Source: Schmidtea polychroa (lineage: Eukaryota). From it: a stretch of 64,000 nucleotides of DNA. Shown piece by piece: positions 18,101 to 64,000 of the stretch. The position numbers and the translations under genes are program-made. The notes beneath the pieces were generated by a model that was given only the letters and a program-made list of their open reading frames with translations, had not been told where the DNA came from and searched no databases. Every line of letters starts with the position of its first letter. Position 1 is the stretch's first letter. The stretch covers positions 81,840,001-81,904,000 of the forward strand of contig CM097888.1 of the NCBI GenBank assembly GCA_044892525.1. Reading direction: 5' to 3'.

Positions 18101-21100
18101 ATGTCTTTTTCCGTAATAATTCGACCATCTGCCGTCCTGAAAACCACGGCGTCATCGGCCTTTTTTACTAATCTGCAAAAAAAATTATTAAATTTTTTCT
18201 TTTATTATAAACAAATTTAATATTTCAATATAGCCTGTCTATCAAAACATTATAAAACATTTTGTATTAGCTCTAAACAGTTCTCAAATAGAACTTTTCT
18301 GAATATTCTAAATATTATACATTTAAACCCTGTAACGACTGACAGGAGTGACAAGAGGGTCGACTGTACCCAATTATCCCTTTCCGAGGGGCGACAAATT
18401 TCTGTCGGACATTCGAGATATCAGAGTTTATTATCTGTAACCGCAGTTAGTGATGAGTGAAACTTACAGATGACAACATCCGTTTTATAAATGTAGTCAG
18501 TAAATTATTTCAAGAAATATTTTTAGATGGATCTTTAGAAAGACACAATTAAATCATTAAATCATGGTTTGAGGTCAAATAATTAACCCTTGTAAGTAGC
18601 TATGTTACAGATGTGATCCATCCATGGTGAAAAGCCTTAAAGGATTTTTGTTCACAAAACCATGGATATTAAATTAGATTAAAAGAAATCTCACAAGTAC
18701 GATTGGACATTTAGGAAGTTTTTGGTACAATAGTTGGTTTCTAGGAAGGTTTTAACTTTGAATTTGGCAATGAAAAGATGTAGAAAAGCTATATACATTG
18801 AAAAAGTCGAAAAAACTAAAAGTGCCAAATTTCAAGTCAAGCAGTAAATGTCTAGAAGTAAAGTATCCACAAGTCGATAATTTGAATTACCTTTTTTTAT
18901 AGATTTTCAGATTATTGATCAATATTTTTTTTCTTATTGAGCACAAAATTTTGGAACTATTTTTTCAAGTGTTTGTTCAATATATATTTTTTCAATATCT
19001 TGATTTGTACGAATATTTATTTGTTTATTTAATAATAATCAGCATTTATAATTATCGGTTTACGAACATAAGGAACTTTTGTTGATCAATTGCAACTATT
19101 ATTTTATATTTATTATCCATTTAATATTATAACAGAATATCGTGAAATATTGTTTCTATAAATATTTTAATAAATGTTATCTACATATATAATTACTGTT
19201 GTACGTAAGTCCCTTACGTCTAGGGCTTGCAATACCGGGATCCCGGTATTACCGACATTTTTAATACCGTTCAATACCGGTATTAATGACCACTTAATAC
19301 CGGTCCGGTATTAAATTTTTTTGCTGTAAGTTAACATTCATATCATTTTTATTTAACTATTTTATTTTTTATAAGTAATTAGCATATGTTTAGGTGTTGT
19401 CATGTTTAAAGATTAAATCTAATTTTGAAATTTACGTACAGGTGGCCCTACTGAAGTAATTTGTTTTTTTTTACATTAAGAAAGAGCCTTTTCGTACGTT
19501 AATTTTTCTAATACTAAAAAAATACTAAAAAAGACACAAATTCACATAGCAAGCCGTTTCTATGGGAAATTATTGTTTTCTATTTTTCCAAATTTTCAAT
19601 ATTGAAGCTATGTTTTTTTTTATAAAGAATAGTTAGTTAGTTCAGTTGTAAAGTTTTTGAAAATTTAGAGAATTGTGTTTGTGTATAATATAAAAGTTAA
19701 AAAATATTTAAAATCATAATTATAATTAATAATCATTAATTCAATTGATAAATAGCAGATAGGTAAAGGTAAGTTAAAAGTGTGAAAATTAATTATTGTA
19801 TAAGTAAAATTTTTATTTTCTATATATTTATATAGATAGCGGCGCTATCATAGCGCACTGCTGCGGGTTTTTTAAAAATTAAAATTAATAAATAATGTTG
19901 GGCTGAGTCGAAAATTTAATCGTTGAAAAATAAGAAAGTAGGGAAGTAGAACATTAAGAAAAATAATAATAAAATAAATAAAATCAGAAATAAAATAGAA
20001 TAAGATATAAGGAAAATAATAATTAAGACATAAGAATTAAAACAAAAAATAAAATTAAGAAAAGATTAAAATAGAACAAGTTGACAAATAAATAAAGAGG
20101 AATTCAAGAAATAAAAAGGAAATTAAGGAAATAAATAGAAAAACATATTAAAAATAAAGAAAATAAGGAAAAAACAACCTAAAAACAAGAAAATTATATT
20201 AAATTAATAGAAATAAGCGGTACTCAACTCTGATTGGTCCGCACAAATAAGAATTTGATATATATACAACTACCAAAAACATTAAATTTACTATTAACCC
20301 CGAGCATTTCATAGGTAAGAAAAATGTTTACTGGTTTTACTATTAACCCCGAGCATTTCATAGACATCTACAACTCACGGAGACTTAATTCAAGGATCAG
20401 CAATACTAGTAGAGCAACAGTTAATTCGGAAAACTTCACAGCAATTCGAAATCAGTCACAGCAATCGACATTCGACGAACCATCATCAGACTAATTTGGA
20501 ACGACTAACGTTAATTTTCCGATTCAGCCTAATTCCATAGTAAGGGATTTTTATTTATGATATTGTTTTTCGAAGTTAATAGTAAATATGTATATTTGAT
20601 GAGCAATTAAACTTTTAAATTTAAACAGACTCTCTTTTCATTTGATCCCGAATAACGATTTTGATAAAGTAAATAGTTTAAATGTTTAAAAGTATTTATT
20701 GGTAACAGGTGAACTCTTACATAATTTTTATGGATATTTATTTTGAAGTGATAGTTTTATGATTTCTAATATTAACGAGAAACGTGGCGTTGAGATACTC
20801 CATGTCATGGTGTGAGGTGCCTTCGGGAGCTCAGCCGGTGGACATGGAGTATTTCAATCACGCAGCTAGATTGGGCCGAAATGTGAAGGCTTCTTCACGG
20901 GTCCAATTGCTGAAGGACTTAAAATCTGTCAGAGTACCGAAATATAGACCGAAAGGAAACCTTCTGAAATTTTCGAAAATAGGATATGTGCTTCACAGCG
21001 ACTGAGGGAGTTCTCATATTAACTCTGTATTGTCCAGAGTCGTCTTACAAGACATTCATGCCACTTCTGTCTATAAACCCGAACTTACCATGTGGGGGAA

Positions 21101-24100
21101 AATACCATTAAACATCCATCGCTGGTCTTCTAACATATCGAGAAGTCGAAATTGCATTCGGTAGATTTTTGAAAAAGTAAATCTAATTTAGGTCATCTCT
21201 TTCAGATGCGACATCCAAATCTTAGCATATGATGAGGAATTTACAATAAAGGAAAAGTAAAACATAAAACCACAATAATACTGTATTCAATCACATATAT
21301 TAACAAAATCTGGTAATACCATTGAATAATTTTCATGCTGTTGCGTCGAAATATCCACTACTGAAATATGCTTCATAGAGTCTAGTTGGCTGGTTCGTAG
21401 AGATCTTCCATCGTTCAAAAACATCCAATATTGAGGAAATTACTAGTCGTAGTAAATAAATCCAACATCATAAGCTCAGATGGGAATCGACACGCGATGT
21501 AACATTTGTAGTTCGCTCAGTAAGGTTGATAGTTACAGATAAAATTTCCATCGAATAGGCACCCATACATACAGACATACTGCTAACATAACTATGAGTA
21601 GCGTCATCCGGTCAGAAATATGCATGAGAAACAGCAGAATCATTCCGAATGCCTCTCACCGCAGGGAATGCCGCCATGTGTCACCCTCTCTAGGATTCTT
21701 AGTGTGTGAGTAGTAATCAGTGGTCATATTAGATAATGCTGACATGAGATGTGACTTCCAGATGACTGACTCTTAAATTTCACTACTGATAAAGGTCATT
21801 CGTACCACTAAAAAGATAAGCCAAAATAACCAGTAACCGACTACTAGGATAAGAGACTCTCTAAAGTGCACTCATTAAAGATAATTTTGCTTAAATTAAA
21901 TATTCTAAATAAAAATCGAAATTGTTGAAGGGGTATTTTAATTAATAACCGAAAATTCAAACCAAACTTTATAACTCAACCATAGGAAGTTTTACCTAAG
22001 TGTTGTAGAGGTTTATCGTAATTCTAATTAGATGTTACAAATAATAGTAGTAGCCTTCGAGCCAAACTTAAATTAACTAAAGCATCTACAGGAATTTTTG
22101 GGTTATAAAATAGCTAGTAATATTGTATTTAAATTTCTCATATTCCATGTAGATTACGTATTGTAATAGAAAACTAAATCCGATAACAAATTATTATGTA
22201 ATTACAATATTTTTACGATGCTATATTTCTACGACGATATCACCGTATGGTATGGATAAGGGGTAATCATAAAATAGTGACGCATAGTTTATACGAAATT
22301 ACGAGTTGTTACTTATTCCGCTACTTGAGGTAAGGGTGCAAGTTTTTACTAGTTGCATTTGGTCCAAAAACCTTATTTTGCATTAGAATAACAACAAATA
22401 ATCAGCGAAATTTAAACGAAGTGTAGTATAGTGTATTTGCAATGAAATAGGTTTATTCACTCCGGCATGAACAAATCCGTAAATTGCCTTTATGTGCGAT
22501 AGATAGAAATCCAACTCGAACGCGATAGACGAAAATTTAAATTTTTACAAATAATTTGCATTCGTCAGGGAAGCAATCAGGGCGTTGAGGAATAATTTTG
22601 TAAAGGATACGTAAAATATTAGTAATCAAGGGTGAAGGGAGGGATCCTGTTTCATCGACTCGTCTTGTTTTCTTCCAGCACTAAGTATCCAATAGCGAAT
22701 AAACCGTATATCTGATCCGAAATTTTTAGATATAGTCATCATAGTTTTCTTCTTTAGCCATCCATTATGTTATCAAACAACAACTCAGCTCTACGTCCCT
22801 GCTTCTCCTGCTCAGATAAAAATGCAGTGATTAAAGATCTTCAAGCCCAGATCGGTCGATATAAACGACAAATCGACGAGCTGGAAGGGACATGGTTTAG
22901 TCCCGCTCGGATGAAGGAGATCCAAAAGAAGCTCGATCGTAGCGAGCATTGCCGGGACGCGCTAATATCTGAGAGCCGTGCCCAAAGAAGTCTAATCAGA
23001 GAACAATCCGAGGCACTGCATAAGGTTTACGTGCAGGCGGCTACAACCCGAAAAATTGTGCAGATTCCCATCCGAGAGGCCGATGACATCTTTCCGCCTC
23101 ATCACAACCTTTCCTCGAATCCATCTCCACCGTTCAAGAGACCGTGCCGAGACTGCGTCGAAACCGAATTGTCTCCCCAGCGACCAGATGTTGTCATCAC
23201 GGGTACCAGTAAGCCCCCCACTGCTAGTCCATCCGTATCAGTCACCCTTCCGCAAGTGGCATCTTCAAGCAAACCCAAGCGAAAACAACTTTCTCGTGCA
23301 GAGCGCAAGAAGAGACAGCGCGAGCGCGCTACTACAAAGCCAAACATCCCATCAATAGAGGACTCAACTAACGATGGCAACTCTCACGTGTCCCTCGACC
23401 TAACAACGGGACCCTCGGCACGAATCATATCAGCCGCTGGTGTAACGTGGGAAGAGAACGCTTCCGAGTTCTTTAACCTCGACGAATTATTCGCCGACGC
23501 TGAATGGGAGAAACAATAAAACCCCAGTGGCGGTCAGGATGAGGAACAAGGATCCGATCTATGTTGATTATGGTGTTTTCTCTTCTTTCGACAAACATTA
23601 GTAAAGTGTACAGTTGAATCCTTATGTTATAACGTTGAAATTAATAAATCTTGTTGTCTTACACGTTTTCGTTCATGAATAATTATACTTTAATTAAGTG
23701 GGTGGGGTAGAGAACCCGCAAGATCTAGTGAGAAATTCCCAATTTGCATTCAGCGAATCCCGATAAGCGGTTGTGTAAGGAAATGGACGTAAGCCCTTCT
23801 ATCGGCAGTCGTGAATGGGAAGTCGAGGCCTCAGCAAGGAGTAGTTTTAAGGCAGAAGCTCACCTGCTTGCTGGCGTCTCGCCTGCATAGTGCAGTACCA
23901 ACGTGAAGTGATTCACGGGCACTATGTTGGAAGAAAGTTATGTGGGGTTTCACTCCAGGTTGACAAATCGGTGGCACCTTTTATTCGAGATGGACAATCA
24001 ACCCTTAGACCCGTCAACATGGTAGAGTGGTCAGCCGAGGTGTAACCCCAACATGATTTTTGGGGGCTCAGCCGGGATACAGTCGATTGAATTTCTATTA

Positions 24101-27100
24101 ACGAATGCGAAATTCACCGGGATTTTCATACAAAATTAAAGGGATTTATCACATCGATTTTCTGTTTTCGACCGACCATTGCTTGACGAATGCAAATTGA
24201 CTATTGATTATTAAATTATATTAGGAACTAAGTAGAGAAAATCAAAATGTAGATAATAGAAAAATTAAGGATATATATAAATAAAGGAGATAAAGTAGTC
24301 AAATTAAATAATTAACAATGGTTAAAGAAACCAATTAACGAATTAACTATTAATTTACTACATATTATTAAAACATTACTTTTCCAACAGCTATGACAGA
24401 ATTCGCGAACCAAATGCAACAACTGCTCAAGTTTATCGATATAGAAAACGACTCCCTAACAACACTGACGCATAAAAGAGAAAAAATCAACGCGATATTA
24501 CTACAAGCAATCGGACAAACACCAGTCGTACCTAATCCTATGATATTAGCCACAGGCCTAAGTCGCCCAGATGGGAAAATAAACCCCGAAACCGTATATC
24601 AGTGGTATCAAGAGAGATTGAACCACCCAACATTAAATCTAGATTATCAGCGTCTAAAAGACTCACTAAATACAATACCAGATGCAATCGAACAAAAAAT
24701 ACAGGAAAAAGTTAACCAATTACGAACTTGTATAGCCTGCAAACTCCGTCCTATTCGCGTATTATTCTTGCCGTGTGGACACCTCAGTCACTGTGAAGAG
24801 TGTGTAAAAGACCTAAAAAGATGCACGATGTGCAAATATGAAATAAAAGAGACCCATATGGTCTATTATGGCGAATGAAACGGCCGGCGATGTAACAGCA
24901 AGTATACGATGTTTGAACAAGAATGCATGAAATTGTTGAAGTAACACGTACTGTTAATGATTCAATCTTTATGTTTATGATAAATAAATTCGTCTTTAAA
25001 AAGTTTTGATGATTAGGACTAATAAAATTTGCATGACGAATGAATATTTGCGTGTTTGTTTGGTTTTATTCTTTTTCTTCGGAATCAAATGAAGAGAGGG
25101 TTGAATAACGTGGAATTAGTCCCAATATAGACTGCAGGGGTACAAACCGAGCCACCTTCGGGCGGTACGTCTTATTGCAAGAACCCGTTGGGAGGGGATA
25201 ACTGATCAACCCAAGTAAGAAGCGTAGGGCGGGGTACCATCGCATATGATGAGAAGTTTTTGCGACATGACTGATCACCATGCCAATGTAGAAATGGATC
25301 ATCGCGATCGTCGTGCGTTTTGAGCAAGGGGGGAAAGGGGAAACACTCCCAAGCGGTAAAGATTAAGTCGACAAATTAAAAGTAGACAGAGAAAATGGTA
25401 AACTAGAGTAAAAGAAGAAAAGAGAAATAGAAGCATGCAGAGCGAGGAATATTGAAGCCGAGCTGTCGAATAATCCAGCCGGTCAAGGAGGAAGACTGAG
25501 CTGTTGAATAGTGCCAGCCAGTCGTAAGGTCGAGTTGTGAAAAGTCCAACCGATCAGGAAGGAGGAAGATTGAGCTGTTGAATAGTGCCAGCCAGTCGTA
25601 AGGTCGAGTTGTGAAAAGTCCAACCGATCAGGAAGGAGGAAGATTGAGCTGTTGAATAGTGCCAGCCAGTCGTAAAGGCCTAGAAAAGCGGGAGATAGCA
25701 GTTAAGCTACAATGAGATAATATTTAAATTACTAGTGATATGGAATATTAAAGCTAGCTAGAACAAACTGAATGTAATTTTGAAAATTAGAGTTTAGAGA
25801 GGAAATAAACGAGCTCGTGGAAAAGAAAATAAGATTATAAGGAAAAAGGAAAGGGAAGAAGGAAACGAATTAAAGAGATAATAGAAAATAAAGAATAGAT
25901 GAAATGATGATAATGAGTAAAGAGGAAAGTAACTAACTAATTAAAGGGATCCCAGTGAAGTAGAGAAACTCTACGGAATATTTTTTTTGGTTAAACCGGG
26001 AAAATGCATTTTATTGGTTCCAGAGTAGAACCGAGCGTAATAATAGTGAATATGAAAAGTAAAATAGCGACAACAGCGCAAAAGGATTAGGAAAATGAAA
26101 GGGGGGTAATAAGCAGAGACCGACAACGACCTATTTTTACTATAATTGATAACGAATAGATAATTATTACGACTTTATAGATAATTGTTACTACCCCATA
26201 TAGATAATTTAAAATCGACGGAAAATACGGGCTGATGGGATATTATAAACCGCAGAAAGGATTTCACAAAAGATAGGGGAAGCACAAACAGAAACCTAAA
26301 AGGCGTCTGTTTTTGAATGTTGTAGAAAGAATGATGAAGTCGTGTAAGCAAATGCAACACGAGATCATTTTTTCATTTTAGATATCAAGCCAATCCAGCC
26401 AACCAAGACAATCTAGAACCTGCACAAAAGGAATTCGAAGAAATCGACAATCAACCAAGGATAAATCCATTCAGAACCCGCACCGAGAGACACAGCAACC
26501 GGAAGACTCCAGAACGGAAGAAGTATCAGCAGCCATCTGCCAAGGATTAGTAAATCTCCTCAGGACCTCAGTAGCAGATTCATACAGAATATTTATCGAA
26601 GGAAACACAATCAGAACCGAACGCGTCCAATTCAATAGCCGCTAATTACCAAGAAGCGTAAGGAAGGAATCACGGATAAACCCAATCTTAGATCTTCTAG
26701 TAAGCCAGGAGACGTATTATTTTCAGGAGACGAATTACAACAACTCAAAAGAGGACGATCCATTAAACATCAAAGAGGAATATCACAAGGATCCAGAAGA
26801 ACCAATCAAGTACCCATATTTGACCAAGAAAATCTCGGATATACCCCTAGTCGATCTCGAAGTAGAGAAAGTCTGTCCGATATCACTAATAGTTTAGCAA
26901 CGTCAACCGAAGAATTATCAGCCCAAAGTTTAGTCACATCGTTAGACAATTTAAAAGAAACAGACGAACCTAGAACACCAATCATGACGAATGTCGTAAA
27001 AACCGACGAGTATAAAGAGAAGTTCAGAGGAGAACCGTTCAACGGAAATGCAAACAAGCTAGCAACGTTCATAACTAATTTTGAAGTTTATATCACTGTG

Positions 27101-36100: not shown

Positions 36101-39100
36101 TTAGGGCAACATAAAGAAGCGTCCAGTAGACTGATGAGATGGGCCATGCAATTGCAAGAATACTCCCCATTTATAAAATTCAAAGCGGGAAGAGCAAATG
36201 CCAACGCCGATTGTATGTCAAGATTTATTTTCCCAGATTTGGTGGATTCAGAAATGCAACGCATATGCTTAATAGTAGCGGAAGATTTGGATTTCTGTCA
36301 ATTACGAAAGGACCAACAAGAGGACGCGGAATTAAAACAAATTATCGATTATGTAAAAACCGGAAAGACAGAGGTATATGCGAAAGACCAAAAATTAAAA
36401 GAACATATGGATAAACACCGACACCGATATATTATAGAGAAAGATTGGTTGCTGATAATGGATGGGGAAAAACGATTAATGTGTATACCGGGAAACCGAC
36501 GAAAAGAGTTACTAACGCAATATCACGACGGGAGATTGGGAGGACATATGTCATCGAAAAAGACGTTAGCAAGAATGAAACAGAAATATTTTTGGCCTAC
36601 GTTAACTGAAGATGTAACCGAATGGGTAAAAAAATTGTCTAACTTGTGCAACCAGGAAGAATACTGGATCGAAATGGAAAGCACCTTTAACACCAATGCC
36701 AGTACCAATAGAACCAATGACGATGATATCCATGGACGTAGTTGGTCCACTACCAGAGTCAGATAAAGGAAACGTTTACATTCTAGTGATCACAGACTTT
36801 CTTACGAAATTCCCAGAAGCATTCGCGATGCCAGACCAAAAAGCTAAAACAATCGCAAAAATTTTGGTAGAAGAGATATGTTGCCGATATGGAACACCAA
36901 AACAAATCTTAACCGATCAGGGAACTAATTTTATGAGTGAGATAATGAGCGAAGTAACAAATTACTTCAAAATAGCAAAACTAAGAACCTCTCCATACCA
37001 CCCTCAAACCAATGGGATGACGGAAAGATTTAATGGAACACTTATACAAATGTTATCAAACTACGTTGACCGTCACCAACGAGATTGGGACGAATATATA
37101 AACCTATGCCTTATGGCATACAGAATGTCGATTCACGCATCAACGAAAATGAGCCCATTCAAATTAATGTACGGAAGAGAATGTAATATGCCAATGGACC
37201 TAGAATACCAACCACCGATATCACAGTATATGGAGATCGATGATTATGTTACGAAATTCAAGGAAAGAATGCAAGAAATTTGGGAAACTGCGGGATTAAA
37301 TATCAAGTTCTACCAGGAAAGTTATAAAGATTTACACGATCGAAAGAAAAACGTGAAGCAACATACGTTCCAAACAGGTGATTGGGTAATGATAGAAACC
37401 CCGGAATTAATTCCAGGAACCACAAAAAAGTTACAACGCAACGGAAAAGGACCATATGAGATCTTATTCGTAGGCGAAACTAATGTAAGAGTGAAATTGG
37501 TAAATAACCCCTTTACCAGACCAATATACGTAAACGTGGCACGATGCAAATCAATTCCAAAAACAGCCACCAGTCAACCAGAAGGCCGTACATTAACCAC
37601 ACGTTCGCAAACCTACCGAATGAACATGATGCAACAACTCGCAGAACCGATCACCGGACGATTGGGTATCCAACCATCAGAAGCGGAAAAAATTGTAAAA
37701 GAGGTAAAAATTAAAATACCTGGATGGGCAGAAGATCGATTAGATTTCGAAATATTAGGAGGATTATTGACGATGATCGAGAACTATGCAAATAGAGAAA
37801 GGACACACCCATTATTGCGAGTAGTCCAAAGCCAATGGCCAATATTATTTACAATAACAGATCATTACGGAGACACACCATTACACAAACTCATGAAAGT
37901 AGGTAACAACGAGCAAATACTAGAAACAATAGAAGCATTTCACGACTGCAAGCGATCAACAGAACAAACAAACAACCAAGGTTACACACCATTAATGATA
38001 GCCGCAAACAGAGGTAAAACAAAGGACATTATAACCGCATTACTCGATACCGGATCGAAAATAACTACACAAGACCACGAGCGGAAAAACGCTCTACATC
38101 ATGCTATCGAAGGGAGAAGTACCGAGGCGTTCACGTCATTGATGGAACTACTATCATATGAGGACAATCGGGAAGTCGGAAACATGTATGATGGATTGTT
38201 AACAGCGATCAAAGAAAAACTGACGACAATTACCGGAATATTAATTACATGGAGAAATCCAATTCGAAACGATTATATGATCAACGTAAACGAAGCGTTC
38301 ACGAGAGGAGAGAACACGCTGATGAGAGAAGCTATGAAAGGACATCATTTATTCGAAATCCCGAATCAATTACTAGAACGAGGGATAAAATTCACAAATC
38401 ATAAAGACGAACAGTTAGCAAAAAAGCGAATCGACACATTCGAAAAATCCCTATTCCAATTTACTAACCAAGTACGAAATAAATATTGGGAAACGGTAAG
38501 TGTGTTATATATGATGGACACGATGAATAACATCCGCGAGAATTACCTGGATATTATCCAAATACTTACAGCAGAGGAACGAATCAATAATCCAAACGGA
38601 AAGAAAACGAAAATAAGGTATGAGAAATCCAGGGAATCAAAGTCAACAACGAACCAAACGGTCACAAACAACGTCATCAAAACCAAATCAATGAGTACAG
38701 ATCAAGAGGCAATAATACGCAAAGCAAAAGAAGTGTTCTTTGAGGAAATGCTAGAGCTGCCAGACGAAATAATATTATCCAAAATCATAAAAGCCGTACA
38801 CACATACGCAAGAGATCAAACCACGGGTTTAGATATCGGGAAAATCAAAACCTTCTTGCCTCGAGCATTTACGATGGTAACGAAGGATTCCAGAACACCC
38901 CTACAACAAGCAATACTAGCAGCGAAAGAAAATAGAGCAATAACGATCGTGAGAATCCTTGGAGAGATGGGCGAGGAAACCAACACGAAAAATGAACAAG
39001 GTGAAACCGCCATGATGTATGCAGCTATAACGAAAATACACCCAAAAACACTCCACATCCTACATCAATCAGGATCGAAACTAGACGAAAAGTCCAATGA

Positions 39101-45100: not shown

Positions 45101-48100
45101 TTACCGAAATCAAAATCAAGAACCTAAACAAGAATCCAGTCAATGCACATACCCGATGACCGTAAAAACCCATATCATCCAAACCATTCAATCAACCCGA
45201 TCACACATCAACAACATCCAAACAATGTGTAAAAAGAATCCCATTTGTAAAATGATAAACAAACAAATCCTCGAACAAATTCAACAATTCGACCAGTTGG
45301 AACAACAAATGCAACAAGAGAATTTTGGAAATCTGGTAGAAAAGCCAAAAATACCTCCCGAAATCAATGACACCCATTATCTCATATATGTGGTGATCGC
45401 AGAGACCCTCCTCCTATGTCTACCAATATTCATGAAGATTTACGAAATTCGAAATAGATGTAGAGTCTCGACATCAATAAGAGTAACCTCGAACCAAAAT
45501 CCTCAAGAAGTGCCCCTGACAAATCTTAACCCAACCCCATTCCGACCTCGAACCCCGAGTAATCAACCAATCCAGCCGAAATCTAATAGTCAGACCTATC
45601 TCAACATCAATACCCAAACCAACCAACAGCCGCCAGCAGAAGCATCAATGGTTAACAGTTCATAGACTCTAATTCAAACATTTGTGTTATTATATGTGGA
45701 AACTTTTATTGTACGTACAAACTATCACCTTAAGTGATACTTGCTTGGTCTTGCTTTGACCTTGATCTTACAATAAAATTTTTATCATTGTTGTATAATT
45801 TTCGTGTTCGTGTTATATTTTTTTTTGAATGAATGAATTAAGTTAATTATGCAATTGCGGGACGCAATTTTGATGGGTCCCCGAGTGATTTGTTGGGCTG
45901 AGTCGAAAATTTAATCGTTGAAAAATAAGAAAGTAGGGAAGTAGAACATTAAGAAAAATAATAATAAAATAAATAAAATCAGAAATAAAATAGAATAAGA
46001 TATAAGGAAAATAATAATTAAGACATAAGAATTAAAACAAAAAATAAAATTAAGAAAAGATTAAAATAGAACAAGTTGACAAATAAATAAAGAGGAATTC
46101 AAGAAATAAAAAGGAAATTAAGGAAATAAATAGAAAAACATATTAAAAATAAAGAAAATAAGGAAAAAACAACCTAAAAACAAGAAAATTATATTAAATT
46201 AATAGAAATAAGCGGTACTCAACTCTGATTGGTCCGCACAAATAAGAATTTGATATATATACAACTACCAAAAACATTAAATTTACTATTAACCCCGAGC
46301 ATTTCATAGGTAAGAAAAATGTTTACTGGTTTTACTATTAACCCCGAGCATTTCATAGACATCTACAACTCACGGAGACTTAATTCAAGGATCAGCAATA
46401 CTAGTAGAGCAACAGTTAATTCGGAAAACTTCACAGCAATTCGAAATCAGTCACAGCAATCGACATTCGACGAACCATCATCAGACTAATTTGGAACGAC
46501 TAACGTTAATTTTCCGATTCAGCCTAATTCCATAGTAAGGGATTTTTATTTATGATATTGTTTTTCGAAGTTAATAGTAAATATGTATATTTGATGAGCA
46601 ATTAAACTTTTAAATTTAAACAGACTCTCTTTTCATTTGATCCCGAATAACGATTTTGATAAAGTAAATAGTTTAAATGTTTAAAAGTATTTATTGGTAA
46701 CAGGTGAACTCTTACATAATTTTTATGGATATTTATTTTGAAGTGATAGTTTTATGATTTCTAATATTAACGAGAAACGTGGCGTTGAGATACTCCATGT
46801 CATGGTGTGAGGTGCCTTCGGGAGCTCAGCCGGTGGACATGGAGTATTTCAATCACGCAGCTAGATTGGGCCGAAATGTGAAGGCTTCTTCACGGGTCCA
46901 ATTGCTGAAGGACTTAAAATCTGTCAGAGTACCGAAATATAGACCGAAAGGAAACCTTCTGAAATTTTCGAAAATAGGATATGTGCTTCACAGCGACTGA
47001 GGGAGTTCTCATATTAACTCTGTATTGTCCAGAGTCGTCTTACAAGACATTCATGCCACTTCTGTCTATAAACCCGAACTTACCATGTGGGGGAAAATAC
47101 CATTAAACATCCATCGCTGGTCTTCTAACATATCGAGAAGTCGAAATTGCATTCGGTAGATTTTTGAAAAAGTAAATCTAATTTAGGTCATCTCTTTCAG
47201 ATGCGACATCCAAATCTTAGCATATGATGAGGAATTTACAATAAAGGAAAAGTAAAACATAAAACCACAATAATACTGTATTCAATCACATATATTAACA
47301 AAATCTGGTAATACCATTGAATAATTTTCATGCTGTTGCGTCGAAATATCCACTACTGAAATATGCTTCATAGAGTCTAGTTGGCTGGTTCGTAGAGATC
47401 TTCCATCGTTCAAAAACATCCAATATTGAGGAAATTACTAGTCGTAGTAAATAAATCCAACATCATAAGCTCAGATGGGAATCGACACGCGATGTAACAT
47501 TTGTAGTTCGCTCAGTAAGGTTGATAGTTACAGATAAAATTTCCATCGAATAGGCACCCATACATACAGACATACTGCTAACATAACTATGAGTAGCGTC
47601 ATCCGGTCAGAAATATGCATGAGAAACAGCAGAATCATTCCGAATGCCTCTCACCGCAGGGAATGCCGCCATGTGTCACCCTCTCTAGGATTCTTAGTGT
47701 GTGAGTAGTAATCAGTGGTCATATTAGATAATGCTGACATGAGATGTGACTTCCAGATGACTGACTCTTAAATTTCACTACTGATAAAGGTCATTCGTAC
47801 CACTAAAAAGATAAGCCAAAATAACCAGTAACCGACTACTAGGATAAGAGACTCTCTAAAGTGCACTCATTAAAGATAATTTTGCTTAAATTAAATATTC
47901 TAAATAAAAATCGAAATTGTTGAAGGGGTATTTTAATTAATAACCGAAAATTCAAACCAAACTTTATAACTCAACCATAGGAAGTTTTACCTAAGTGTTG
48001 TAGAGGTTTATCGTAATTCTAATTAGATGTTACAAATAATAGTAGTAGCCTTCGAGCCAAACTTAAATTAACTAAAGCATCTACAGGAATTTTTGGGTTA

Positions 48101-51100
48101 TAAAATAGCTAGTAATATTGTATTTAAATTTCTCATATTCCATGTAGATTACGTATTGTAATAGAAAACTAAATCCGATAACAAATTATTATGTAATTAC
48201 AATATTTTTACGATGCTATATTTCTACGACGATATCACCGTATGGTATGGATAAGGGGTAATCATAAAATAGTGACGCATAGTTTATACGAAATTACGAG
48301 TTGTTACTTATTCCGCTACTTGAGGTAAGGGTGCAAGTTTTTACTAGTTGCATTTGGTCCAAAAACCTTATTTTGCATTAGAATAACAACAAATAATCAG
48401 CGAAATTTAAACGAAGTGTAGTATAGTGTATTTGCAATGAAATAGGTTTATTCACTCCGGCATGAACAAATCCGTAAATTGCCTTTATGTGCGATAGATA
48501 GAAATCCAACTCGAACGCGATAGACGAAAATTTAAATTTTTACAAATAATTTGCATTCGTCAGGGAAGCAATCAGGGCGTTGAGGAATAATTTTGTAAAG
48601 GATACGTAAAATATTAGTAATCAAGGGTGAAGGGAGGGATCCTGTTTCATCGACTCGTCTTGTTTTCTTCCAGCACTAAGTATCCAATAGCGAATAAACC
48701 GTATATCTGATCCGAAATTTTTAGATATAGTCATCATAGTTTTCTTCTTTAGCCATCCATTATGTTATCAAACAACAACTCAGCTCTACGTCCCTGCTTC
48801 TCCTGCTCAGATAAAAATGCAGTGATTAAAGATCTTCAAGCCCAGATCGGTCGATATAAACGACAAATCGACGAGCTGGAAGGGACATGGTTTAGTCCCG
48901 CTCGGATGAAGGAGATCCAAAAGAAGCTCGATCGTAGCGAGCATTGCCGGGACGCGCTAATATCTGAGAGCCGTGCCCAAAGAAGTCTAATCAGAGAACA
49001 ATCCGAGGCACTGCATAAGGTTTACGTGCAGGCGGCTACAACCCGAAAAATTGTGCAGATTCCCATCCGAGAGGCCGATGACATCTTTCCGCCTCATCAC
49101 AACCTTTCCTCGAATCCATCTCCACCGTTCAAGAGACCGTGCCGAGACTGCGTCGAAACCGAATTGTCTCCCCAGCGACCAGATGTTGTCATCACGGGTA
49201 CCAGTAAGCCCCCCACTGCTAGTCCATCCGTATCAGTCACCCTTCCGCAAGTGGCATCTTCAAGCAAACCCAAGCGAAAACAACTTTCTCGTGCAGAGCG
49301 CAAGAAGAGACAGCGCGAGCGCGCTACTACAAAGCCAAACATCCCATCAATAGAGGACTCAACTAACGATGGCAACTCTCACGTGTCCCTCGACCTAACA
49401 ACGGGACCCTCGGCACGAATCATATCAGCCGCTGGTGTAACGTGGGAAGAGAACGCTTCCGAGTTCTTTAACCTCGACGAATTATTCGCCGACGCTGAAT
49501 GGGAGAAACAATAAAACCCCAGTGGCGGTCAGGATGAGGAACAAGGATCCGATCTATGTTGATTATGGTGTTTTCTCTTCTTTCGACAAACATTAGTAAA
49601 GTGTACAGTTGAATCCTTATGTTATAACGTTGAAATTAATAAATCTTGTTGTCTTACACGTTTTCGTTCATGAATAATTATACTTTAATTAAGTGGGTGG
49701 GGTAGAGAACCCGCAAGATCTAGTGAGAAATTCCCAATTTGCATTCAGCGAATCCCGATAAGCGGTTGTGTAAGGAAATGGACGTAAGCCCTTCTATCGG
49801 CAGTCGTGAATGGGAAGTCGAGGCCTCAGCAAGGAGTAGTTTTAAGGCAGAAGCTCACCTGCTTGCTGGCGTCTCGCCTGCATAGTGCAGTACCAACGTG
49901 AAGTGATTCACGGGCACTATGTTGGAAGAAAGTTATGTGGGGTTTCACTCCAGGTTGACAAATCGGTGGCACCTTTTATTCGAGATGGACAATCAACCCT
50001 TAGACCCGTCAACATGGTAGAGTGGTCAGCCGAGGTGTAACCCCAACAATAATAATAAAGAATAGCAAGATTTCTGCCGTTTTAATAAGTGGGTACAAAT
50101 ATTCAAAAAATTCTGTAATTTACTTAAAGTTAAAACGCTGTTTTTTAGCCATGGAAAACTATGTTTTTGAGGAAAAATCAGCTGATGAAAATTCCGTATG
50201 GTTCTATTTTCTTCGTGAGAAAAGGGACAAATATCAAAATGTAAGAAGTGTAACAAAGTAATAAAGACGCAAGGAGGTAGTACAAGTGGTTTGCATACCC
50301 ACCTAAAGACACTCCACCAAATTAATTTAAAAAAAAGGAATGCTCCGAGCTCCAACCTTCTGATTGAAATTGAGCCAGAACTATCAACTTCTAAAGTGAA
50401 CAAAGTTTCTAGCGGGAAAATAACAACATTTTTCGTTTCGGAAACGGACAATTCTTTGTCTGCAGTTTTAGCTCGTATGACGGCATGTGACGGTTTGTCG
50501 TTTAACATATTTTGCACTTCCGTGGATATCAGAAAAGGTTTAACTGCCAGAGGGTATGAAAATATACCAAAATCTATAAACTCTATAAAACATTTAGTTG
50601 TGCAGTACAGTGAAAAAATTGGTGCAAATATGATTAAAGAGTTAGAATCTCAAATTCTTTCGGGACAACGATTTAGTCTTACATTTGATGAATGGACATC
50701 GGTAAAAAACCGACGTTATTTAAATATAAATGTTCATGCTGGCATCAAGAAATTCTGGAACCTAGGATTAGTTCGCGTGCAAGGATCATTGCCTGCAGAA
50801 AAGTGTGTTGCCCTCGTTGAAGAAAGGCTTAAATTATTCCAAGTTTCTTTAAATAAACACATTGTGTGCATTACAACCGATGGTGCATCTGTCATGACCA
50901 AAGTTGGAAAGTTGATTTGTGCAAGAAAACAACTTTGCTTAGTTCACGGAATTCAATTGGCTGTCATTAAGGTTTTATATATAAATATGATACACTAAAA
51001 TTTAGAAAATGAACATTCTAATTGTAACGAAGATGATAACCAGTATACAAGTGATGAAAATGATAGTGATCTTGATGATAATAGTTTATCCATACTTCAA

Positions 51101-63705: not shown

Positions 63706-64000
63706 TGCTGGGGTAGTGCTTGGTTGACTCTGCTCGATCTACGTCCTTGTCTAGGGGATGCGTGTCCATATCAGTACGCTACATACGCCCGTGTCAACCC
63801 GGAGCAGGACCCCGCACAACCTGCCCTCCAACATAGCACCCGCGAATTGCTTCACGTTGGAAATGTGCTATGCCGGCGAGACTCCAGTAAGCAGGTGAGC
63901 CCCTACCTTAGGACTACTCCTTACTGAGGCCTCGACTTCCCTTTCTGACGGCCGATGGAAGGACTTACGTCTGTTTACCTCATCAGATTCTCTCTCTACC
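63706..64000 (-). mobile_element. 3' (U5) end of an LTR from a related Gypsy family, continuing beyond the window
   Basis: Reverse complement aligns to 23785-23965 at roughly 80% (hand alignment) and terminates CCCCAGCA versus CCCCAACA; no PBS follows, so it is a 3' or solo LTR. Confidence 0.85.

Follow-up and report, generated by a model that had tools for sequence, protein, structure and literature searches.

A conserved RNA fold at the U5 end of Burro-like planarian retrotransposons, next to the primer-binding site

What does the RNA at the end of a giant planarian retrotransposon's long terminal repeat (LTR) do, and is it maintained as RNA at all? The question is raised by a stretch of 64,000 nt of the Schmidtea polychroa genome (GCA_044892525.1, contig CM097888.1, positions 81,840,001 to 81,904,000; hereafter the window), which contains a Burro-like Ty3/gypsy element at 19896-50048. 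A preliminary description of the window had proposed a functional RNA of about 350 nt at 23700-24053, filling the U5 (unique 5') end of the LTR beside the primer-binding site (PBS). This interval is the final 354 nt of the 5' LTR. On comparative sequence grounds, the U5 structure is real: compensatory changes on the plus strand preserve its base pairs in each of the four groups of related elements sampled, and a selected plus-strand structure adjoining the PBS is strongly supported. The proposed extent was too generous, as 23700-23785 cannot be aligned even with the second LTR in the window, while 23786-24060, about 275 nt, stands. The sequences concerned are:

19896..24053, plus strand: 5' LTR (TG...CA, 4158 bp) of the Burro-like Ty3/gypsy element, delimited by its identity to the 3' LTR and by a target duplication

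49781..50048, plus strand: identical copy of the U5 RNA in the 3' LTR, followed by neither spacer nor PBS

63706..63976, minus strand: U5 RNA of a second, diverged LTR variant, which is the 3' LTR of a neighbouring element

Of the first 100 PBS sites, counted along the genome, 90 were used to fetch copies for comparison. By their upstream ends these 90 loci fall into groups I to IV with 9, 35, 30 and 14 members, and 2 more copies are interrupted by insertions; the window element belongs to group I. A motif-anchored parser, which required CAC, parsed 101 of 110 loci; it failed on the 2 copies with insertions and on 7 others that carry point changes or deletions. The counts are based on 37 chosen representatives, 35 of them parsed. 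A single genome, with four related lineages in it, supplied all the sequences; the controls leave this relatedness in and are not probabilities. The reverse transcriptase (RT) is 84-99% identical between groups despite LTRs that cannot be aligned: in LTRs of up to 4.3 kb, the only alignments that BLAST made between groups were pieces of 25-38 nt within the U5 core and one piece of an open reading frame (ORF), and no part of the other groups' LTRs aligned with group III. All four groups share one common core of about 145 nt. The two LTRs of the window had been taken for two different families; they are diverged variants of one Burro-like lineage, and it is across the four more distant groups that the structure proves to be common.

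Covariation, first noticed between these two LTRs, persisted far beyond chance with more copies. Groups I, II and IV contributed 18 sequences to an independent MAFFT alignment, in which 27 pairs were 97.5% canonical and 13 of them were doubly changed; none of 500 shuffles equalled this result, and partners slid out of register reached 34-50%. Further pair types in the same alignment were not exceptional (171/500). Where both columns vary, 20 of 30 proposed pairs were at least 90% canonical with a double change, compared with 146 of 3845 other column pairs. A covariance model built from groups I, II and IV recovered, with E-values of 7e-13 to 4e-9, all 8 loci of group III that had been held out; of 9 control loci it recovered none. 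With regard to strand, 31 selected pairs gave 996 Watson-Crick, 77 G-U, 4 A-C and 8 other cells (1085 in total), and for every one of 13 cores the plus strand gave the better of the two folds (z -1.2 to -5.0). The excess of G-U over A-C and the better plus-strand folding point to an RNA of the element's sense strand.

The fold consists of a pseudoknotted 5' part, two hairpins with conserved internal loops and a long terminal hairpin that extends beyond the LTR:

23786..23821, plus strand: 5' knot, a predicted nested pseudoknot with covariation in its first two helices

23786-88/23808-10, plus strand: knot helix S1

23793,23795-96/23804-06, plus strand: inner 3-bp helix of the knot

23797-99/23819-21, plus strand: loop helix UUC/GAA of the knot

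23825..23880, plus strand: hairpin Pa, with an invariant 1x3 internal loop of C-loop type (23841-43/23860-64) and an inner stem-loop

23882..23930, plus strand: hairpin Pb/Pc, with a conserved bulge (23894-23902 versus 23917-18) and a second C-loop-like loop, CCAAC opposite GG

23934..24060, plus strand: long terminal hairpin (23943-49/24044-50, 23958-64/24030-36, and 23934-43 with the LTR end and spacer, 24051-60)

24054..24060, plus strand: spacer between LTR end and PBS, 7 nt (8 nt in group III)

The outer helix of the knot changes from C-G to G-C and from A-U to G-C in group IV, and the inner helix covaries between G-C and A-U and between C-G and U-A. The knot loop measures 6-7 nt, and its UUC stands opposite GAA in 34-35 of 35 rows, in columns that barely vary; the support for this helix is therefore one of fit and not of covariation. 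Thermodynamic folding does not show the knot. All 35 parsed rows carry, within a hairpin, an asymmetric loop with a C-led long strand and 0-2 extruded bases, and its closing pair covaries between G-C and A-U; the likeness to C-loops is one of sequence. Sequences listed as C-loops (PMC9516175, PMC4551918) resemble UCACC opposite GUA, UCACU opposite AYA and CCAAC opposite GG, the last being near the listed CCAAU opposite AG; the non-canonical pairs are presumed. The terminal hairpin is 70-130 nt long, with a conserved base and a variable top.

Three helices already described were found at their places and are compensated in the aligned minus-strand LTR: CAGCAAG/CUUGCUG (23832-38/23867-73), GCAUAGUGC/GCACUAUGU (23885-93/23919-27) and the UUUU..AGAA stem. 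Other pairings had to be redrawn. GUUGAC had been joined to GUCAAC at 24013-18, and its conserved partner is instead GUCAGCC at 24030-36, with which GGUUGAC pairs in the terminal hairpin; GUGGGGUUUCAC, thought to be a local hairpin, is one strand of the same long hairpin. The GGGGU at 23704 was to pair with the terminal ACCCC. Among 30 close copies, however, GGGG occurs only in the window element's own 2 LTRs (28 read GGGUYGAG at this site), and the actual partner of the terminal C-run is 23943-49. The related expectation of CC just past position 64000 fitted at one of two bases, the minus strand reading ...GGGUCAG-GGUAG. CCAAC/GUUGG pairing involves invariant columns, and so has no covariation behind it. 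No Rfam 15 family matched the window or 8 loci from all four groups; the window gave a single 18-bit chance match upstream.

The spacer lies outside the LTR, and it pairs over at least 6 bp with the linker that follows the core in 99 of 102 loci, compared with 395 of 1632 control windows (8 of 110 loci were skipped). The letters of this helix are group-specific on both sides: the group III spacer forms only 3-5 bp with the linkers of groups I, II and IV, and group III linkers discriminate poorly (5-7 bp). The elements thus possess a stem of the U5-leader type, joining U5 to sequence beside the PBS. Its compensation indicates that sequences inside and outside the LTR evolve together, and this links the domain to the 5' leader. 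Since the terminal helix needs the spacer, the 5' leader is the only place where it is predicted to close, and the 3' LTR and solo LTRs cannot form it. In the modelled fold, the 3' end of the primer is predicted to sit at the foot of the terminal hairpin. The primer site and the candidate contacts are:

24061..24078, plus strand: 18-nt PBS, complementary to the 3' end of host tRNA-Pro(TGG)

23822..23825, plus strand: position of the T-arm complement, GAACCC(G) in groups II-IV (tRNA-Pro linear nt 49-55) and GAAGUCG here, with one mismatch

24001..24011, plus strand: segment of 11 nt that complements nt 9-19 in the D arm of tRNA-Pro, with one G-U pair, in the variable hairpin top, paired by inspection

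The PBS matches the 3' end of the host tRNA-Pro(TGG) genes; exact copies of it number 1073 genome-wide, against 0 for the control, and only 3 variants occur at the two positions tested. The tRNA-Pro(TGG) genes at 130.9 Mb form a tandem array with a 475-bp period, and their pattern matches the genome 2190 times. [quoted passage not shown] Beyond pairing pattern, strand and position, which are observed, we infer tRNA contacts, a switch and protein binding in the following scheme. The 3' 18 nt of tRNA-Pro would anneal to the PBS, freeing the T-arm strand and the D arm. These would then pair with U5, at GAACCC and GGACC in groups II-IV and at the D-arm box in groups I-II. GAA would be half-masked by the UUC/GAA helix, and the knot would act as a switch that nucleocapsid (NC) opens, a masking that we liken to the way the primer activation signal (PAS) of human immunodeficiency virus (HIV) is covered by the U5-leader stem. 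The C-loop-type loops may be protein contacts (Gag/NC or RT) or packing sites, and RT would start at the foot of the long hairpin.

Complementarity to the primer is consistent with this scheme. The GAACCC after the knot complements tRNA-Pro linear nt 50-55 in the T arm and is exact in 22 of 27 group II-IV representatives, with a wobble-compatible variant in 3 more; the upstream GGACC, complementary to nt 44-48, is present in 25 of the 27. GGUCC is absent from -500 to +4000 of the PBS in 4 of 4 group II-IV elements, and GGGUUC is present there in 1 of 6 elements. Tested against shuffled tRNA windows, the D-arm duplex gave 0-1/40 in group I, 1-2/40 in group II and 3-5/40 in group IV, and the T-arm duplex 0-1/40 in group III, 1/40 in group IV and 4/40 in group II. 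The core is also retained in a 15-kb short element with 1.66-kb LTRs, which is how a cis signal should behave.

Several points weigh against a role in primer handling. In group I, the window's own, all 8 representatives show a G-G mismatch in the T-arm match, none of the 8 has GGACC, and the T-arm duplex test falls short of significance (31-34/40); so does the D-arm test in group III (8-11/40). The tRNA matches were chosen post hoc from 16 windows in each of 4 groups with only 40 shuffles, and a chance match is expected for 1.3% of random 6-mers and 5% of 5-mers. Seven of 10 invariant motifs tested have no tRNA match. The invariant CCAA fits the anticodon loop, but a C-loop explains it equally well, and the motif that precedes the 3' LTR in group II holds GGUCC, an alternative partner. 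The invariant loops of the core could serve packaging instead, and the case as a whole consists of sequence and covariation from one genome with four related lineages. We regard the evidence for tRNA contacts as modest.

There are partial precedents for primer handling. In HIV-1, T-arm nt 48-55 are the pairing partner of the PAS, which stays masked before nucleocapsid acts (PMC3675109), although this model has been challenged (PMC3185550); PAS/anti-PAS and the A-rich loop are precedents for primer contacts (PMC3675109, PMC11251516). The HIV-1 PBS segment (PMC3675109, PMC11251516, PMC11181671) resembles that of the Burro-like elements in having U5 RNA upstream of the PBS, a helix from U5 to sequence outside the LTR, and a candidate for the motif that complements the 5' strand of the primer T arm and is masked by pairing, the masking being predicted in our case. 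The planarian RNA differs in its pseudoknotted core, which has two C-loop-like loops and lies some 130-270 nt upstream of the PBS, its 7-8-nt spacer, its use of tRNA-Pro and the imperfect T-arm match of one group, and it has no sequence similarity to HIV-1. In Ty1 and Ty3, T and D arms of the primer pair outside the core PBS, as proposed here; the Burro-like elements differ in having a full 18-nt PBS and extra boxes whose place would be U5, and Ty3 has a normal polypurine tract (PPT) (PMC5371799).

Primer activation is the best supported of the functions first listed for this RNA. Its main rival, with which it is compatible, is less probable, yet a serious possibility: the core would be a packaging, dimerisation or export signal of genome-length RNA, bound by Gag/NC or by an LTR-encoded, Arg-rich protein of Rev/Rex type. 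U5 would be present only in read-through RNA if the following signal is used:

23643..23648, plus strand: AATAAA, candidate poly(A) signal for the putative R/U5 boundary

C-loops are known as protein-binding motifs (PMC9516175), there are invariant loops that match no part of the tRNA, the 250-aa ORF at 22767-23519 within the LTR has a basic, Arg/Lys-rich run, and the group III LTR also has basic ORFs. However, no loop palindrome is conserved across groups, the spacer helix links the domain to the PBS, and the group II LTR keeps the core without any ORF of at least 90 aa, though a protein could act in trans. In addition, the LTR hairpin at 20785-20865 (z -5.8) would be a better-placed target for a basic protein.

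It is quite unlikely that the core is a new self- or trans-cleaving ribozyme, distantly related to that of hepatitis delta virus (HDV), which processes the RNA or aids production of the plus-strand primer. The P1 helix of HDV-like ribozymes has 6-7 bp. The outer helix of the knot has 3 bp in groups I, II and IV, and its positions 4-5 are canonical in 46-49%. The knot as predicted follows the P1/P3/P1.1 nesting order, with an outer helix, a 3-bp inner helix, a downstream partner for a 6-7-nt loop that starts with UUC, and a long P4-like hairpin next to it (PMC4908430). In the core many unpaired bases are invariant, and a PPT is missing at 30 of 30 junctions. On the other hand, the knot fails as a member of the HDV-like class: there is no P2 helix, only 4 free nt being left for J1/2 plus P2, and there is no strand like J4/2. 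The knot also lies in LTRs and not at the 5' ends of non-LTR elements. Rfam gave no match near threshold, cleavage of U5 in both LTRs would part the template from its repeat, and no complementarity to the motif before the 3' LTR is conserved. Likenesses to SRP RNA, RNase P, the VS, hairpin, twister-sister and glmS ribozymes, exonuclease-resistant RNAs (xrRNA), the T-box bulge and RNA polymerase III promoters failed across groups.

A role in 3'-end formation, by read-through of the 5' LTR poly(A) site or by an exonuclease block after cleavage, appears very unlikely. The group I fold begins about 140 nt past the AATAAA at 23643, and a TATA-like box and first exon near 20257-20315 would place this signal in a very long R that must be bypassed; but the group II and III LTRs examined have neither AATAAA nor ATTAAA in their final 900 nt, and the core is the same in both LTRs, only the spacer helix differing. 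An internal ribosome entry site (IRES) is highly improbable. Size and tertiary-type motifs are IRES-like and all full elements have an ORF 340 nt past the LTR end, but no AUG or open frame is conserved at the 3' end of the domain (AUG in some groups, AUA in others), PBS and long hairpin intervene, and gag begins about 2.9 kb downstream. That the pairing is accidental, and the pattern due to common descent or to a signal at the DNA level (integrase attachment, promoter), is scarcely credible, for although all groups are one lineage by their RT identity, the rest of the 4-kb LTRs cannot be aligned between groups, double changes preserve pairs, and G-U lies far above A-C on one strand only.

The other end of reverse transcription holds a second peculiarity. 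No group has a polypurine tract: in the 60 nt before the 3' LTR the longest purine run is 3-6 nt at 30 of 30 junctions. In its place stands:

45853..45890, plus strand: conserved motif in place of the polypurine tract, 21 nt before the 3' LTR

This 17-nt inverted-repeat motif lies 21-22 nt before the LTR, accompanied by GGGYCCC and a 7-8-nt spacer, and has 1267 genome matches with at most one mismatch (control 0), about one per PBS. The 61-nt region before the LTR folds no better than its shuffles (z 0.06). A pseudoknot drawn in the motif from four elements was dropped, as other copies show A-C at the varying pair. The motif matched viral contigs twice, each time in coding DNA and with neither the downstream motif nor the U5 core. 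Trimming at LTR ends usually removes 2 nt. Spacers of 7-8 nt are seen at both LTR-internal junctions (24054-24060 and 45883-45890), and integrase or RNase H would therefore have to trim more. The fungal GalEa Copia elements likewise have a hairpin-type motif, the Conserved Hairpin Site, where a textbook priming signal is expected; theirs replaces the PBS, whereas here a normal PBS is present and it is the polypurine tract that the motif replaces (PMC5445492).

The window element measures 30.15 kb, with two 4158-bp LTRs (TG...CA) that are 100% identical and a 4-bp target duplication, and by its sequence it is a Burro-like Ty3/gypsy element. Pfam places Gag, CCHC knuckles, a Monjiviricetes-type, env-like fusion glycoprotein, protease, RT, RNase H and an integrase zinc domain in one frame of 3260 aa, with the fusion protein between gag and pol and RT, RNase H and integrase in that order; the next, overlapping frame holds the integrase core and ankyrins, and RING and TRAF/MATH have separate ORFs. 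This layout matches planarian Burro/GYPSM1, giant gypsy-like LTR elements (PMC6431247): both are of 30 kb, share the order Gag-Env-PR-RT-RH-IN with a mononegavirus-type fusion protein between gag and pol, and have ankyrin and MATH/TRAF. The section of that work describing Burro/GYPSM1 gives no LTR RNA structure, primer or polypurine tract, and the window element differs in having MATH in a separate ORF. Burro RNA becomes more abundant in animals after PIWI knockdown (PMC8532177). The gag-env-pol frame stops within integrase at 36696-36766 and the integrase core resumes in the overlapping frame; a second group I copy shows the same start of the second ORF, and a group III copy has a single frame of 4688 aa. 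Long stretches, one per group, contained full elements in groups I, III and IV, group III having MATH within ORF1 plus a BIR ORF as in Burro1/GYPSM1, and the 15-kb short element in group II. The latter has a gag-like ORF and no RT match, yet is the most frequent in the sample (35 of 90); group II elements are likely, from their gene content, to be non-autonomous derivatives.

The second LTR spans 63706 to about 67460 on the minus strand, past the window end, and is followed by host DNA with no PBS. Its element's internal region (67026-75925 in window numbering) is 93% identical to the window element over 8.9 kb, while the two LTRs can be aligned only in islands of 75-81%, one of which is 23786-23965; LTR replacement or very fast LTR turnover may lie between the two elements. 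Within the 5' LTR, 20257-20365 holds a TATA-like box and then a 24-nt sequence at 20291 and again at 20340, flanking a GT...AG intron. The sequence suggests that transcription starts close to the 5' end of the LTR and that R measures about 3.4 kb. The very stable hairpin at 20785-20865 is an island retained between LTR variants and contains the PBS-like GGGAGCUCAGCCGG. The protein of the ORF at 22767-23519 belongs to no Pfam family and had no homologue in a protein search. Further conserved leader islands lie at 25064-25320, with a cUUCGg hairpin at 25155, and at about 26100-26210, the latter aligning even with group III; both are candidate packaging signals.

Occurrence of the RNA outside Burro LTRs was examined within the sampled loci. 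Two U5 patterns had no match in viral contigs, a protein search of viral contigs found no related loci, and a metagenome scan gave 5 matches, none with flanking stems and none scored by the RNA model. Burro-like polyproteins with an in-frame fusion glycoprotein occur in other ENA assemblies (P0116-P0118), 53-57% identical over the RT region, which indicates that the group reaches beyond this genome. A literature search found no work joining planarian, retrotransposon, RNA secondary structure and PBS, though supplements or Grohme et al. 2018 might annotate the Burro PBS or polypurine tract; for ribozymes in LTR elements, the works listed dealt with non-LTR elements and retrozymes only.

Structured U5-PBS leaders are to be expected, and knowledge of them comes almost wholly from a few retroviruses and yeast elements. 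The fold reported here is undescribed but of the expected kind, and the missing polypurine tract is its unexpected neighbour. Rather than a new ribozyme, the U5 domain is probably a control region for starting reverse transcription, one not described before. A bolder reading, which we consider unlikely, would make it a T-box-like machine whose grip on tRNA-Pro involves the T arm, the D arm and the anticodon, with the invariant CCAA as the Pro codon plus a partner for U33, or else a new ribozyme, and would add second-strand priming by a structured motif without a polypurine tract.

The role of extra primer contacts is disputed even for HIV-1. In this regard, the four lineages offer natural data on covariation in an elaborate fold, carried by an animal retroelement with env, and the fold yields testable predictions on primer contacts. 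The missing polypurine tract, common to about a thousand recent copies, challenges the textbook rule of plus-strand priming. If the bolder reading were true, RNA structures unknown in other LTR elements would run both ends of reverse transcription.

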